A DNA stretch of 36,654 bases from a virus (IMGVR_UViG_2609459834_000011:1-36654), one strand, 5' to 3'; shown: positions 3,449 to 8,493, counted from the stretch's first letter. Numbers and translations: made by a program. The notes: generated by a model from the sequence alone, not told the origin.

Positions 3449-4420
3449 TCAGTAATGAATTTTCGCGCAGGGGATCAGGTCATCTTTCAGAGCGGTAAGC
3501 ACTTCGATAGCCTGCTCGCGGGTTAAGCTGGTTTGGCTGGTGAGCGCGTTAACGATGTTGGTGCCGACCGTCTTGCGGTGCTTAACGTCAGCTTCACGCT
3601 TTGCCTGCTCATCGGCGAGGCGCTTCTCTTCGGCCAGGCGGGCATCTTCGGCCTGTTTGGCCTTCAGGCGCTCGGCTTCAACCGCCGCGGCTTTTTCGCG
3701 TTCCGCCCGGGCTTCCGCTTCCTGCTTCTCGCGAGCTGCACGCTGTTCCGCTTCGACGCGCTGGCGCTCCGCCAGTTCAGCGCGGGCTTTCTCTTCGGCT
3801 TCACGGCGCGCTGCGGCTTCAATCTCCGCTTTGTGCTTCGCTTCGGCATCGCGGCGGGCTTGTTCTGCCGCTTCCTGTTTCAGCCGCTCATCACGTTCAC
3901 GCTGAGCCTGTTCCGCCAGACGGCGCTGCTCTTCGCGGTCACGGTCAAAATCCTTGTTCATCAGTAGAGCCATTTCGTGGTCCGCTTCGAACTTGGCAGC
4001 CAGCTCCTGATCGAACCTGATGTTCATCTCCAGCGCTTCGGCGTGCATCGCGTTCATGGCTTCTTCAGCCTTAATGCGTTCCTGCTCGGCTTCCCATTCG
4101 GTGAGTGGGCGGCGGGTCGCATCGCGCAGCTCGTCGCAGGCATCAACGAATCGCTTAATTTCGGCCTCAGCCGGACGCACAGCCTCTTTCAGGCGCTTCA
4201 GGTACTCACGGCCCGGCTTTTCGATTGCCGTCTTGCTGCGGGACACCTGCGCTGCCAGAGAGGCAACACGGTCACGGCCTTTCTTCGTGGACAGGTCCGG
4301 CACTTCGTTTACAGCCTGGCGGATTTGCTCAAGGTACGCGTCAAGGCCGCCCGCTACGTAAAGCACTGGGGCCTGTTCCGGCTTGATTTCGATGACGGTT
4401 AAATCCATTATTTCGCTCAT
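3449..4420 (-). CDS. Coiled-coil protein with low-complexity Glu/Ala/Arg/Lys repeat core
   Basis: 323 aa; central region is a long EAxRAEREKAAA-type repeat; the repetitive GC-rich DNA leaves three overlapping open frames on the opposite strand (3533-4020), which I treat as artefacts. SD AGGGGA upstream. Confidence 0.6.
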   Translation of the reverse strand: MSEIMDLTVIEIKPEQAPVLYVAGGLDAYLEQIRQAVNEVPDLSTKKGRDRVASLAAQVSRSKTAIEKPGREYLKRLKEAVRPAEAEIKRFVDACDELRDATRRPLTEWEAEQERIKAEEAMNAMHAEALEMNIRFDQELAAKFEADHEMALLMNKDFDRDREEQRRLAEQAQRERDERLKQEAAEQARRDAEAKHKAEIEAAARREAEEKARAELAERQRVEAEQRAAREKQEAEARAEREKAAAVEAERLKAKQAEDARLAEEKRLADEQAKREADVKHRKTVGTNIVNALTSQTSLTREQAIEVLTALKDDLIPCAKIHY

Positions 4421-4507
4421 GGTTTCCCCTGAAATTTGGTTGTGAAACGCCCGGCACCGTAATGGCTGCCTGATAGCTCTGTTAAATTCGTGCGCTGAAA
4501 TGCGCGG

Positions 4508-4702
4508 TCAATGCGTCCCGGCTGGAACCAGGTTCGGCTCGATATTGCGTGAAGCGTATGGCCGGCGGATGTGGCGCAGATTGCCCTGCGGCTCATGCCA
4601 GTAGCTGCCGTCGCGATAGTCGAAGCTGACCAGCCAGGCGGCGCCGGTGCGGCGATTGCGCATCATCACGGCGCGTCCGTTGTTAGGAATTGAGTTAGCC
4701 AT
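4508..4702 (-). CDS. Hypothetical small early protein
   Basis: 64 aa ORF, basic; start overlaps the stop of the upstream micro-ORF. Confidence 0.4.
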   Translation of the reverse strand: MANSIPNNGRAVMMRNRRTGAAWLVSFDYRDGSYWHEPQGNLRHIRRPYASRNIEPNLVPAGTH

Positions 4703-4805
4703 TGAACACCCCCGTAGCGTGCAGAATTTTGATAATCAACGCTGTCCAGATAACGCCGCAGATCAGCAGGCAGTAAATCAGTGAACGAATGCCTTGTTTG
4801 CTCAT
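4695..4805 (-). CDS. Small hydrophobic peptide (about 36 aa, single predicted TM helix)
   Basis: Hand-translated MSKQGIRSLIYCLLICGVIWTALIIKILHATGVFNG; ATGA start/stop overlap with the upstream peptide gene; below the ORF-track length cutoff. Confidence 0.35.
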   Translation of the reverse strand: MSKQGIRSLIYCLLICGVIWTALIIKILHATGVFNG

Positions 4806-4909
4806 TTGCCACCCCAGCACTGAATGCTAACTACGAGGACTGCAACCAAAAACGGAACGACCTTTAACCAAAAATTACGCCATGCAGGCTTGTCTTCTTC
4901 GCGGATCAT
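4802..4909 (-). CDS. Small hydrophobic peptide (about 35 aa), first gene of the leftward early operon
   Basis: Hand-translated MIREEDKPAWRNFWLKVVPFLVAVLVVSIQCWGGK; SD-like AAGGTGA 8 nt upstream; lies just downstream of the OL-type operator cluster. Confidence 0.35.
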   Translation of the reverse strand: MIREEDKPAWRNFWLKVVPFLVAVLVVSIQCWGGK

Positions 4910-4991
4910 CTCTTCACCTTTGCCTTAAAGCCGGCCAGCTGAGCGTTGTTACGATTACCCGGCGTTGCCGGTGTTGTTTGGATGAGGTGAT

Positions 4992-5061
4992 AATACTCCG
5001 GGTATTATTTTATATCAATACCGCTAGTATTATAATATTTAATAAAAATACTAAAGGTATG
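4992..5061. promoter_or_regulatory. Left operator cluster (OL-like): three 15-bp palindromes AATAC-N5-GTATT in an AT-rich divergent promoter region
   Basis: AATACTCCGGGTATT (4992-5006), AATACCGCTAGTATT (5017-5031), AATACTAAAGGTATG (5047-5061); same motif as the operators between cI and cro. Confidence 0.55.
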
Positions 5062-5130
5062 ATTTTAAAGTTAATTTATTTTTGTAAAGAGTGCTGTTAT
5101 GCTCAAAAAAACATCAGTAAGGGTGGCGGC

Positions 5131-5334
5131 ATGTCAAATGAGAATGAGTTTTTCGCAGAAATGCACCCGCAGATAGCGCAGGTTATCGGGATAGCGGTTA
5201 TGCAACTGCTGGTTGAGAAGCGCGAGCCCTCAAGAGAGGCGCTGATAGAGATGATTCAGGTGCTGTGGCAGGGTGACCAGGTAGAGCTGGCGGTGGAGCT
5301 GGCACTGGACGTGCTGATGCAGAGGGAAGAGTAG
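5131..5334 (+). CDS. Small acidic helical protein (67 aa), function unknown
   Basis: ATG at 5131 preceded by AAGGGTGG; MSNENEFFAEMHPQIAQVIGIAVMQLLVEKREPSREALIEMIQVLWQGDQVELAVELALDVLMQREE; transcribed rightward away from the OL-like operators. Confidence 0.5.
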   Translation: MSNENEFFAEMHPQIAQVIGIAVMQLLVEKREPSREALIEMIQVLWQGDQVELAVELALDVLMQREE

Positions 5335-5343
5335 GGCAGTAAC

Positions 5344-5365
5344 AACCCGGCGCGGTGGCCGGGTT
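5344..5365. terminator. GC-rich hairpin between convergent genes (possible bidirectional terminator, no clear U-tract)
   Basis: AACCCGGC-GCGGTG-GCCGGGTT, perfect 8-bp stem, between the stop of the 67-aa gene (5334) and the stop of the minus-strand 305-aa gene (5374). Confidence 0.35.
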
Positions 5366-5373
5366 AACGTCTA

Positions 5374-6291
5374 CTACCAGTTCGGTAGCTCACGCAAAGA
5401 ATACTTAGGCTTTCCATTACCTACCTGAGTGCAGAGGAATTTTGCAATAACTTTTTCTCCGCGGTGATCGTTGATAATGTCTGGATTGTCTATGTAATTA
5501 CTGATTTTCGCTACAAAAATTGATTTAGATTCATCATGCTCCATAATAAACTCGCATTGACGTTTATGAGGAAGGGCTCCCAAGAAGCTAACTTCTAATA
5601 ACTGCAAATCTTCTTTAACACTATCTTTACTTAGCTTGAGGACCGCTCTTTCAATATCATTGATATTGTTTGCAACAAGCGCTTGGTTGTTATGCCTTAA
5701 AGTAAAAGTTGCTTTGTTATCAAATAGTATTTGTATAAATCCACGTATTTTATCTAAAGCTCGGTCATCCAAATCACTAATCGCCTCAGCTAGACCATCA
5801 TCGTCTCCCCTTATACTCATTTGCAGGATAGATTGAGTCTGGTTCAGAGCTTTTTGAACAGAAGATTCCTCATCAAAGTTAAGCGGGGCATCTGGCCTAA
5901 ATTCCTCAAGTGTAAATCCAAAAGAACCTTTGGCTGTTCCAGTAATCATAAGCAAATTATTTTCAAGATTTGGAATTTTACCTTTGGCCGGTAATTTCCC
6001 TGAAAATGAAGATGCAACATGAGAAACCGCATCATTAAAGGCGTTAACTATTTTGGTTCCGAAATTTGCAGCTATGCCATATGTACCAAGTACAGGGGCT
6101 CCTCTAAATGTTAAAGTGGCTTTAACTGGCGGATGCTCATCGATAACAATATGAGAAATCTCATCATTTAGCTCATGGAGCCTGCTTTCAAGGCTCATTT
6201 TGCCAATAATGTCATCATCAGTAGTGGTTTCTAAAAGAGACAGGATTGAGTCCCGCTCACTTAGAACGAACAAGTAATCGTCGCGATTCAT
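5374..6291 (-). CDS. Hypothetical protein, second gene of immunity-region accessory cassette (no recognised domain)
   Basis: 305 aa, visibly AT-rich codon usage; start ATG overlaps stop of upstream gene (ATGA) and is preceded by strong SD GAAGGAGGTG; no hydrophobic segments or motifs I recognise. Confidence 0.7.
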   Translation of the reverse strand: MNRDDYLFVLSERDSILSLLETTTDDDIIGKMSLESRLHELNDEISHIVIDEHPPVKATLTFRGAPVLGTYGIAANFGTKIVNAFNDAVSHVASSFSGKLPAKGKIPNLENNLLMITGTAKGSFGFTLEEFRPDAPLNFDEESSVQKALNQTQSILQMSIRGDDDGLAEAISDLDDRALDKIRGFIQILFDNKATFTLRHNNQALVANNINDIERAVLKLSKDSVKEDLQLLEVSFLGALPHKRQCEFIMEHDESKSIFVAKISNYIDNPDIINDHRGEKVIAKFLCTQVGNGKPKYSLRELPNW

Positions 6292-6875
6292 TGCTCACCT
6301 CCTTCTGATAGCATTGTTTCTAAAATGGTTAATGCCTGTTGATCCAGTGTAATATCTAGAGGAATCTGCAAGAATCCCTTCCATGTAAGATCCCTTCTAT
6401 GAGACCACATACTGTACCAATATACAGTCCTTTCTACAAGCTGCTCCTTAGAAACGCCCAGTGACTGGAAGTAAGAATCAACTCTAAACTCTTGCTTTCT
6501 CCACTTACCCATATGTGGCACAAACAGATTCGGGTTACGCATAACGACATCTTGCTGCGTTTCGTTAAACGCCAAATTAAAAAAAGTCACAACATCAATG
6601 TCATTTGGCGGACGTTTTTCAATGAGTTCAACATCTTCTATGAAACTACCATCGATCCATTGAAAACCATCCGTTAACCCAGTTTTATTAATTTCTTTAC
6701 GAAATTTGATGAAACCGAGTAAGATCTCGATCCTTTGTGGGCTTGTAGCGTACCGCTCTACAAATTTTAATATATCTGTCTTATATGGGGAGCGATAGGC
6801 GCTGGTTGGATGCTCCATATCCATTGGTGGGATTACACCAATTTCATTCCAGTTAGGAATTTCCTGAATCACCAT
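6288..6875 (-). CDS. Hypothetical protein with nucleotidyltransferase-like motif, first gene of immunity-region accessory cassette
   Basis: 195 aa, AT-rich; contains WIDGSFIEDVELIEKRPPNDIDVVTFF, matching the G[GS]-x(10-15)-DxD pattern of Pol-beta-superfamily minimal nucleotidyltransferases; same strand as and downstream of cI. Confidence 0.7.
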   Translation of the reverse strand: MVIQEIPNWNEIGVIPPMDMEHPTSAYRSPYKTDILKFVERYATSPQRIEILLGFIKFRKEINKTGLTDGFQWIDGSFIEDVELIEKRPPNDIDVVTFFNLAFNETQQDVVMRNPNLFVPHMGKWRKQEFRVDSYFQSLGVSKEQLVERTVYWYSMWSHRRDLTWKGFLQIPLDITLDQQALTILETMLSEGGEQ

Positions 6876-7185
6876 GCTGTGGCCTTAAATTTCTTATTGG
6901 TTGTAAGAAAAAATGTCATTATTTTCAATGGAGTCATTGATTTTTTTATCGCTTTATCAATATGACTTCTCTCGCTCGCTTAATCAGAGCCTTTCTCTGA
7001 AATTTCATCAGGGATCGCATAAAATTATTGTTTGCCTCATTCACTGCGCGAGCGAAGCCTTTCCTTCATTTACTTCTCGTACATGTTATCTAGCCTTCCG
7101 CCTGAGTCGTAAATATACAATCATTCCCTGTTGTTTTAGGTGGCTTCTTATCCATGCTTCCTGTACGTCTGCGGCATGCTGCCGA

Positions 7186-7896
7186 TCACACAAGTCTCAA
7201 CTTAGTTTCTACAGCCACACCAATGATCCGGCAATTCCCATTGATGGGAACCAATGGCCATTGAGGGTTTAAGCCCTTCAGGTACTTCTGGTCACCATCA
7301 ATGATCAGTTTTTTGAATGTCGCCTCGTTTGATTCCGAGAGTTTTGCAATAACGAGACTTCCGTTGACCGGCTCCCTTCCGGTATCAAAAAGAACATATG
7401 TACCCTCTGGTATGCTGAGCCCGACCGGGGCAGTCATGGATTCCCCCTCGACCAACAACCAGAACGCATCCCCCTGGATGTGAGCGTCTGATTCGAGCCA
7501 TAGATCGATATCTTTAAGTGCATACGGCTCGCACGCTTCCGACCAATGCCCAGCCTGAATCTTGCTTAATACAGGGTATTTAATGCCTGGGGTGTACTGG
7601 CCTACATACTTGGCATTCGATGTAGCGGCAGCACTCATTGCAGATATTTCTTTCGCAAGGCTGGGGCTAAAATCAGAGACATCCACCTGGAGGGCTCTGG
7701 CAAAAACAGCAGCCACGGCAGCATTAAGGGCATTCCTGCCATTCAAGTAATGCCCAACGCCACCCTGAGATATGTCTAGCATGTCAGCTATTGATTGCTG
7801 TGTTATCCCAAGCTCTTTTTTCTTGGCTTCATAGAGGGCTTTCAGCCTTTCTGCGTCAGCGATCTGAGCCGATGTCAGTGTCTTTTTCTTTTCCAT
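7186..7896 (-). CDS. cI: CI-type prophage repressor (HTH plus LexA/S24-like autocleavage domain)
   Basis: N-terminal HTH (GITQQSIADMLDISQGGVGHYLNG); Ala-Gly cleavage site (KIQAGHW); Ser nucleophile (VEGESMTAP) and downstream Lys. The ORF track opens at a TTG (7902); the first ATG is at 7896 and the start may be leaderless as in lambda PRM. Confidence 0.9.
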   Translation of the reverse strand: MEKKKTLTSAQIADAERLKALYEAKKKELGITQQSIADMLDISQGGVGHYLNGRNALNAAVAAVFARALQVDVSDFSPSLAKEISAMSAAATSNAKYVGQYTPGIKYPVLSKIQAGHWSEACEPYALKDIDLWLESDAHIQGDAFWLLVEGESMTAPVGLSIPEGTYVLFDTGREPVNGSLVIAKLSESNEATFKKLIIDGDQKYLKGLNPQWPLVPINGNCRIIGVAVETKLRLV

Positions 7897-7907
7897 TTTC
7901 AAATAGT

Positions 7908-7971
7908 AATACCAATGCTCTTATTTTAAAAATACTTGCGGTATTGCAATGTTTAATACTTGTGGTATTGT
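7908..7971. promoter_or_regulatory. Right operator/promoter region (OR-like) with PR and PRM candidates
   Basis: Palindromes AATACTTGCGGTATT (7931-7945) and AATACTTGTGGTATT (7955-7969) plus a degenerate copy (7908-7922); candidate PR -35 TTGCAA (7944-7949) and -10 TATTGT (7966-7971) at 16-bp spacing, overlapping the second operator. Confidence 0.6.
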
Positions 7972-8000
7972 TTGCTCATGAGTTGATAGGAGCTAACCAC

Positions 8001-8192
8001 ATGAAAATTTCTTTAGCTGAATACGTTGACGAAGTTGGACAGGCAAGAGCTGCTGATGCCATCGGCGTTCACCAGACCGCAATTAGTAAAGCTATCCGGG
8101 TAGGACGGAAGATTTTCGTTAACACCCTGCCTGATGGAAAAATTAAGGCTGAAGAGATCAAGCCTTTCCCACATAACAGAAATCCTGATTAA
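8001..8192 (+). CDS. cro: Cro-like small HTH repressor
   Basis: 63 aa; ATG at 8001 preceded by TAGGAG; HTH-like GQARAADAIGVHQTAISKAI; divergent from cI across the operator region. Confidence 0.7.
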   Translation: MKISLAEYVDEVGQARAADAIGVHQTAISKAIRVGRKIFVNTLPDGKIKAEEIKPFPHNRNPD

Positions 8193-8197
8193 ACAAA

Positions 8198-8239
8198 GCT
8201 GAATTGAGCAGTCAGCGGGTTCTGACTGAGTAATTCAGC
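8198..8239 (+). other. Long imperfect RNA hairpin between cro and cII (8-bp stem, 3x3 internal loop, 7-bp stem, 6-nt loop)
   Basis: GCTGAATTGAGCAGTCAG-CGGGTT-CTGACTGAGTAATTCAGC; no U-tract follows, so not a typical intrinsic terminator. Confidence 0.4.
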
Positions 8240-8271
8240 CATTCCAAACAACACCAGAGGAAGTATCACAA

Positions 8272-8493
8272 ATGGAGAGTTCAACGACACGCAACAAAGT
8301 GGAGGCTCGCAGGATAGAAAGCTGGTTACACAGCCAGATAGCTGAACTGGGAACCACGAATATCGCCAAAGTGGCCGGAGTGAATAAGTCGACGGTGAGT
8401 CGCTGGCGGGAAAGTCTGCTGCCGAACATGTCGTTACTGCTGGCCATCCTGATTTCTAACAGGCCGGGAGAGAAAGGTGACTTTGAAGCATGA
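8272..8493 (+). CDS. cII: CII-like transcriptional activator
   Basis: 73 aa; RIESWLHSQIAELGTTNIAKVAGVNKSTVSRWRESLLPNMSLLLAIL closely parallels lambda CII (RIESALLNKIAMLGTEKTAEAVGVDKSQISRWKRDWIPKFSMLLAVL) as recalled. Confidence 0.7.
   Translation: MESSTTRNKVEARRIESWLHSQIAELGTTNIAKVAGVNKSTVSRWRESLLPNMSLLLAILISNRPGEKGDFEA

Follow-up and report, generated by a model that had tools for sequence, protein, structure and literature searches.

A two-gene cassette in the cI-OL slot of a lambdoid prophage, a candidate anti-phage defence module and putative branch of the PDC-M63 family

The AT-rich segment at positions 5374-6875 of the viral sequence IMGVR_UViG_2609459834_000011:1-36654 raises the question of what a lambdoid prophage carries in the place where lambda harbours rexAB. 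Two minus-strand genes, here termed A and B, occupy this segment of the window (the whole stretch of 36,654 nucleotides that was analysed), and an earlier note made from the sequence alone had proposed them to represent a novel defence or exclusion module. The cassette is probably a self-contained, horizontally exchanged two-gene anti-phage defence module (acting by superinfection exclusion or abortive infection), expressed in the lysogen as prophage cargo and constituting a divergent branch of the PDC-M63 family. Its embedding in restriction-modification (R-M) operons, its occurrence in four different repressor contexts and the sharing of its genomic slot with a BstA-like gene support this candidacy. 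The cassette comprises the following elements:

6288-6875, minus strand: gene A, 195 amino acids (aa); DUF6932, predicted minimal Pol-beta-type nucleotidyltransferase (NTase) with the signature G76 S77, D92 x D94 and D133 and a C-terminal YWYSMWSH...WKG motif
5374-6291, minus strand: gene B, 305-aa partner without Pfam family; predicted N-terminal helical hairpin, ITGTAxGSFGF beta-hairpin (T117, G122-F126), helical bundle and C-terminal OB-like beta-barrel (225-301)
6288-6303, minus strand: translational-coupling junction; AGGAGGTG at 6296-6303 within the last codons of gene A, followed by an ATGA overlap at 6288-6291
5344-5365: GC-rich hairpin separating the convergent 3' ends of gene B and a 67-aa plus-strand gene

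Both open reading frames (ORFs) were recovered exactly as first described, and by their conservation both are real genes: homologues reach E-values of 1e-127 (A) and 3e-192 (B), and the ratios of nonsynonymous to synonymous substitution rates (dN/dS; 0.08-0.10 for A, 0.03-0.045 for B) indicate strong purifying selection on either protein. The stop codon of gene A (6290-6288) and the start codon of gene B (6291-6289) share the ATGA overlap, and the Shine-Dalgarno sequence previously noticed before gene B is present as AGGAGGTG, located 4 nt ahead of the start codon. The C-terminal 'GG' of the A family (consensus ...GGxx) falls on this Shine-Dalgarno sequence (window 6288-6305), so that its apparent conservation at the protein level may really reflect a constraint at the RNA level. 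Windowed composition agrees with the supposed AT-rich island, GC content being 0.40 over 5335-7185 (a 1.8-kb island) versus 0.528 for the whole window and 0.52-0.63 for the left flank. The hairpin at 5344-5365, regarded in the earlier note as the end of the unit, is indeed stable (dG -23.9 kcal/mol, z -3.9, minus strand), but is not a canonical intrinsic terminator because it is devoid of a U-tract and located between convergent genes; it could possibly serve as a bidirectional transcription stop.

The surroundings of the cassette are those of a lambdoid immunity region and contain the following features:

7186-7902, minus strand: cI-type repressor with HTH_3 and Peptidase_S24 domains (start at 7896 in RefSeq)
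8001-8192: cro
7932-7968: OR, two copies of the operator motif ATACnnnnnGTAT between cI and cro
4993-5060: OL, three ATACnnnnnGTAT operators overlapping face-to-face promoter-like sites
5018-4990: PL candidate, a leftward promoter-like site within OL
5009-5036: rightward promoter-like site (TTTATA-16-TATAAT) interleaved with the three OL operators, which would drive the 67-aa gene
5131-5334, plus strand: 67-aa gene (phrog_3946), the conserved left flank of the cargo slot, outside the cassette
6876-7144, minus strand: AT-rich leader of the cassette, holding the 3'-end fossil of a non-S24 repressor gene

Overall, the window contains five copies of the operator motif, where chance alone would give 0.2; near 7908 there may be a degenerate third OR copy. 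Since the operators at 4993-5060 and 7932-7968 bracket cI together with the cassette, both the cassette and the 67-aa gene are located in the interval from OL/PL to cI, which provides independent verification of the proposed rexAB-equivalent position. The pair had been described as lying directly downstream of cI on the same strand; order and strand hold, but not the direct adjacency, as a gap of 310 bp (6876-7185) separates cI from gene A. A promoter and terminator scan of this gap revealed neither a consensus promoter nor a terminator on the coding (minus) strand. Because no terminator was found there, transcription presumably reads through from cI, the cassette being co-transcribed with the repressor gene from PRM or PRE. 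A search against Rfam over 4300-8300 returned nothing. The 67-aa gene, whose transcription runs in the direction of the cassette's 3' end, would be derepressed on induction; antisense transcription from its promoter could enter the cassette and might silence the cargo during lytic growth of the prophage.

Like the pair, lambda RexAB consists of two same-strand genes downstream of cI, located between cI and OL/PL and presumably expressed in the lysogen. Unlike RexAB, with its polytopic membrane protein RexB, the pair shares no sequence or profile similarity with these proteins and includes no membrane protein. The equivalence to RexAB is positional only. Transmembrane helices, which the earlier note had denied to the second protein, are in fact unlikely in both A and B (hydropathy over 19 residues below 1.0 throughout, maximum Kyte-Doolittle value (KD19) 0.92).

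Comparison with four sibling loci (L100, L181, L182, L183) indicates that this position is subject to replacement. The flanks of these sibling prophages agree with those of the window, cI, cro and cII bordering the slot at one end and the 67-aa gene at the other, but the cargo in between differs:

Klebsiella phage ST11-VIM1phi8.2: ParA-like gene
E. coli DY612: KilA-N protein with a match to BstA (E 1.6e-20)
strain ES2: DUF3037 pair with PDC-M66A/B-like matches
strain JNQH497: two other hypothetical genes, the first with a PDC-M66A match

The slot between cI and OL is a hotspot of cargo exchange. BstA of prophage BTP1 shares the niche of the pair, a BstA homologue filling the slot in E. coli DY612, but is an unrelated single KilA-N protein. 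The complete cassette was detected at >=99% identity in 26 of 5,426 complete E. coli genomes.

The leader of the cassette retains traces of the exchange. On the minus strand, window 7037-7093 reads LDNMYEK*MKERLRSRSE*, and the fossil possibly extends to ~7125. An intact repressor in the IMG/VR contig L105 ends LDEMYEKYMKGRIRSQGE*; the next gene on the same strand, 162 bp further downstream, is a copy of gene A with 95% identity. By this resemblance, the fossil is what decay has left of the C-terminus of another repressor, one not of the S24 type. The repressor tail together with the arrangement in L105 argues for arrival of the cassette by recombination from another prophage, in which it looks to have been located downstream of a repressor already and to have travelled with the tail of that repressor. 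Megablast alignment with Klebsiella phages picks up again at window 7144, which would place the right-hand recombination limit of the island near this position. The horizontal acquisition suspected from base composition is thus borne out by a compositional island with recombination scars.

Whether the two genes form a unit beyond this prophage was assessed with two datasets. A degenerate-pattern scan of one genome per species (~100,000 species genomes) yielded 364 loci, and 92 viral contigs of IMG/VR were found to carry gene A; 80 of each were kept for counts. The co-occurrence of both genes across genomes, named as a check in the earlier note, was observed almost without exception: a full gene B lies directly downstream of A on the same strand in 78 of the 80 species loci, which cover Bacteria and Archaea (Methanomicrobiales, Methanoperedens, Methanosaeta, Planctomycetota, Chlorobiaceae, Verrucomicrobiota and others), and B adjoins A in all 80 viral contigs. 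The two exceptions are a contig end and a decayed B. The sole genomic locus with A but no intact B belongs to Cupriavidus sp. U2 (L078, 6600-6750), where only B residues 5-56 are recognisable, suggesting recent decay of the partner. At the A-B junction, an overlap of 4 nt (52/78) or 8 nt (15/78) prevails, and an SD-like (Shine-Dalgarno-like) motif is present in 75 of 78 cases. Judged by gene arrangement, A and B occur as an obligate pair with coupled translation. Neither set of 80 revealed a conserved third gene next to them, and tblastn searches with A and B against 50,697 GenBank phage records gave no match.

Among the viral contigs, a cI-type S24 repressor is encoded at most three genes upstream of the pair in 58 of 80; in 40 it directly precedes the pair on the same strand. 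Whatever gene directly precedes the pair on its strand, the intervening gap mostly measures 12-100 bp. An N antiterminator gene follows downstream of the pair in 8 contigs. In total, four repressors were found to precede the pair: the S24-type cI (window, Gilliamella), non-S24 repressors of 155 aa and 130 aa (Salmonella and other Enterobacteriaceae), and a 161-aa repressor (L105).

The genomic loci add a second context. Neighbour clustering, confirmed by Pfam, identified HsdS in 22, HsdR in 19 and HsdM in 17 of the 80 loci, the gene order being hsdM-hsdS-A-B-hsdR, and ~28% of the genomic loci reside inside type I R-M operons. Clear examples of such embedding come from Halomonas and Accumulibacter, two of the three Halomonas loci also containing a DarT fragment. 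Additional ORFs between B and hsdR (184-189 aa in Accumulibacter, L014-L016; 60 aa and 395 aa in Halomonas, L006-L008) are not conserved across the family. Enrichment in or near known defence systems, a general hallmark of defence genes, is therefore evident (22/80 loci in type I R-M operons, in addition to the slot shared with a BstA-like gene).

This association with type I R-M genes could also be read as a function benefiting the phage, such as restriction alleviation, Ral-like regulation of type I R-M, or another role in lysogeny. Lambda encodes Ral near this region, and gene product B is strongly acidic (net charge -10 to -13), as are DNA-mimic anti-restriction proteins. However, the pair is placed on the cI side of OL and outside the PL early operon, so that its expression is to be expected in lysogens rather than early in infection. 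Moreover, many non-phage chromosomal copies have no R-M system nearby, and an anti-restriction gene within the host's own hsd operon would be self-defeating. A phage-benefit function is accordingly considered very improbable.

Stand-alone copies direct attention to a further possibility, since they adjoin classical toxin-antitoxin (TA) pairs (MNT-HepT in L018, DUF433-PIN in L019). The cassette might be an addiction or stabilisation module for mobile DNA (prophages, R-M islands), any anti-phage effect being incidental. Its compact, translationally coupled two-gene build and its recurrence on mobile elements would be in keeping with this, but neither protein contains a domain that could bind DNA and provide autoregulation, and compared with typical type II pairs both exceed in size and are conserved across phyla to a far greater extent. 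Repeated placement within R-M operons, and in a prophage slot that BstA-like genes also use, is more in line with defence. Addiction as the primary function appears improbable, and defence remains the preferred reading of the cassette.

What the two proteins might do is best approached from gene A, which is assigned to Pfam DUF6932 (E 6e-29), phrog_9194 and PADLOC PDC-M63A (E 2.7e-11); among the papers searched, none mentioning DUF6932 was found. The G[GS]...DxD motif that had suggested a Pol-beta-type enzyme is conserved far beyond chance. G76, D92 and D94 are present in all 139 distinct relatives, S77 and D133 in 138 each (with one G and one E, respectively), and R88, K127, W153, H159 and W165-K166-G167 are likewise essentially invariant. 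The pattern corresponds to that of the Pol-beta superfamily, with hG[GS] after strand 70-75, [DE]h[DE]h at the start of strand 93-99, and the third acidic residue, D133, on the adjacent strand 132-138. In the AlphaFold model (predicted local distance difference test score, pLDDT, 89.6), helix 46-64, strand 70-75, the G-S turn, a short helix, DxD, strand 93-99 and strand 132-138 (with D133) follow one another in a minimal NTase topology. Structural searches with Foldseek returned 2rff first and then three chains of the Shewanella TA-complex entries 5yep and 7bxo, which represent the MntA-HepT complex; the scores of these top matches are weak (E 0.009-0.025, prob 0.54-0.80). CdnC appears among the lower ranks (26 and 31). 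Signature and fold match together point to a Pol-beta NTase fold as probable, and the intact signature predicts a family of catalytically intact enzymes. A lenient Pfam scan of 56 members of the A family detected no NTase family and no profile match to minimal nucleotidyltransferases (MNT), alignment of the A profile with a single MNT sequence by hhalign reached a probability <1%, and the A profile found nothing among PDB sequences.

An NTase of this kind could itself be the toxic component of a defence or abortive infection module, adding nucleotides to the acceptor ends of tRNA as AbiEii and MenT do, or NMPylating an essential protein of host or phage as GlnE- and DrrA-type enzymes do, with B acting as a sensor or antitoxin that restrains it until a phage cue is received. 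Gene product A is the sole component with a recognisable and invariant catalytic site, B being without a catalytic motif, and NTase toxins are established in defence (AbiE). In addition, R88 at position -4 from DxD resembles what is presumably the RxTxDhD motif II of DUF1814 toxins. AbiE and MenAT also parallel the pair in combining a Pol-beta-fold NTase with a ~300-aa partner and in their link to abortive infection. In contrast to these systems, neither PADLOC nor Pfam yielded an AbiEii/DUF1814 match, the gene order is opposite to that of abiEi-abiEii and menA-menT, A is much smaller, and B is without a winged helix-turn-helix domain. Gene product A is furthermore acidic (net charge -6 to -7), contrary to what would be expected of an enzyme that binds tRNA; the acidity of both proteins makes for a poor fit with an effector modifying tRNA or DNA. 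The nearest folds of A are MNT and MntA-type antitoxins rather than MenT, and B is under stronger constraint than A. Toxicity of A restrained by B is on balance rather unlikely, but constitutes the main rival to a control of B by A.

Gene product B, for which the earlier note could name no motif, has neither a Pfam, NCBIfam nor PDB sequence match. Profile searches retrieved 833 (90% identity) and 1625 (50% identity) clusters, almost all of them ~300 aa long and unnamed. Matches of the B profile to BAG domains, the only ones among PDB sequences, were taken as noise. In the searches with the pair, a sub-threshold match to ArsA, the only one in NCBIfam, and a match to Csx19 in PADLOC (E 0.007) were likewise regarded as noise. 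The predicted structure comprises helices, the invariant TAxGSFGF hairpin and the C-terminal OB-like barrel. Invariant residues are mostly structural, with the addition of T117 and S123 in the ITGTAxGSFGF beta-hairpin, and among the relatives neither a recognisable catalytic motif nor an invariant His was apparent. The protein is predicted to be soluble, and its barrel is not basic; a role of the OB-like barrel in binding single-stranded DNA is weakened by the acidic charge. Domain fusions were sought among the 1625 relatives, and neither informative fusions nor domain matches were detected; the few longer relatives comprise two with TPR-like N-termini and apparent frameshift artefacts. In these two (P0430, P0434), a ~117-aa TPR-like N-terminal extension replaces the N-terminal helical hairpin, which hints at the N-terminus being a swappable recognition module.

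The small beta-barrel of B is of a type capable of ligand binding, and with the intact triad of the NTase fold and the presence of CdnC among the Foldseek matches of A it would allow for a nucleotide-signalling pair following the logic of CBASS (cyclic oligonucleotide-based anti-phage signalling system), Panoptes or Clover. A would then synthesise a small messenger or decoy derived from nucleotides that is bound by the barrel of B, which executes or gates the response. Yet A, with only 195 aa, falls far short of CBASS CD-NTases in size, no CBASS model of PADLOC matched, and B contains no known effector domain (transmembrane, nuclease, TIR or phospholipase), nor are such fusions present in its 1625 relatives. 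A conserved third gene adjoining the pair is also missing. Signalling of this type thus appears improbable.

Among known systems, the closest relative is itself a candidate. In the PADLOC v2 search, RexAB, HEPN/MNT, AbiE, CBASS and all other systems remained without match, PDC-M63A being the exception. With Pfam likewise lacking such matches, the earlier view of the pair as neither RexA/RexB-like nor a HEPN/MNT pair is upheld. TgvAB, Clover, DefensePredictor and a domain-centric screen were also considered and proved unrelated to this pair. The 145 PDC candidates of PADLOC were derived from their location inside BREX, DISARM or type I R-M systems ('guilt-by-embedding'; Payne et al., bioRxiv 10.1101/2024.01.29.577857), and PDC-M63 represents the cassette FAM_00167>>FAM_00523 with 45 instances (bioRxiv 10.1101/2024.01.29.577857). 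The same work lists FAM_00167>>FAM_01519 with 269 instances, marked 'Reject' without a reason (Table S8, bioRxiv 10.1101/2024.01.29.577857); this combination may be the branch found here, in which case PADLOC has left it out.

Like the present pair, PDC-M63 is a two-gene A>>B cassette; it is found embedded in type I R-M, BREX or DISARM systems. The PDC-M63A model, which matches A of the window, also matches its relatives (1e-11 to 1e-14). The PDC-M63B models (306-313 positions) agree with B in length and gave weak collinear matches to 3 of 15 B relatives (E 0.0017-0.025), whereas window B was not matched at E<=1. PADLOC would consequently not call this locus. By these profile comparisons, the pair is read as a sister branch of PDC-M63, separate and larger (1625 B clusters). 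The novelty claimed for the module therefore stands in part: the B family and the branch are unannotated, but the pair is not wholly novel, because A is already known as DUF6932 and matches PDC-M63A.

A comparison with MntA-HepT provides the tentatively favoured mechanism. As in MntA-HepT, a minimal Pol-beta NTase with GS...DxD comes first and is followed by an overlapping downstream partner. Unlike HepT, B is not a HEPN protein (no Rx4-6H, no HepT/HEPN profile match, different fold), and A differs from MntA in its length of ~195 aa with extra conserved N- and C-terminal motifs and in the missing match to the Pfam MNT profile. An MntA-HepT-like (type-VII-toxin-antitoxin-like) circuit, in which A would restrain B until infection, is favoured by the order of the genes, by the structures closest to A, by B being more constrained than A, and by A being acidic. 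Specifically, A would nucleotidylylate or otherwise hold B and thereby keep it inactive, with S123 or T117 in the B hairpin as candidate acceptors. This control would be upset by infection, and the B thereby released would arrest the development of the phage or the growth of the host. Tyr297 of B was discarded as an acceptor, since 20 of 138 relatives have Phe at this position.

Defence appears a strong candidate function, partly flagged already by others. The only related experiment, on a distant PDC-M63AB pair carried by a prophage of E. coli NILS69, gave no defence against 10 virulent phages.

Elsewhere in the leftward region, a gene for a 323-aa protein (3449-4420, minus strand; hypothetical in RefSeq) is located between gam and small PL-proximal ORFs. 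Its product is extremely rich in E, A, R and K, as in a long charged helix or coiled coil.

It is conceivable, if doubtful, that the family constitutes a new class of immune module, in which an MntA-like NTase controls a non-HEPN effector (an undescribed domain plus OB-like barrel) by nucleotidylylation or by a nucleotide product. If true, a new effector or sensor fold would be conserved from methanogenic archaea to enterobacterial prophages, and the module would act on its own in the immunity slot of lambdoid prophages, while adding a second layer to type I R-M operons that contain it. Validation would move a widespread pair (364 loci, >1,600 B clusters, Bacteria and Archaea) from 'hypothetical' to a defined immune system, and B, which has no Pfam family, would define a new effector or sensor domain. 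For annotation, the consequence is that the largest branch of the family escapes the PDC-M63B models now in PADLOC. The cassette may further serve as a model for the swapping of defence cargo in the lambdoid cI-OL slot, here leaving behind the fossil of a donor repressor, for repeated nesting in type I R-M operons at the position that PrrC occupies, and for the reuse of minimal nucleotidyltransferases outside HEPN pairs.

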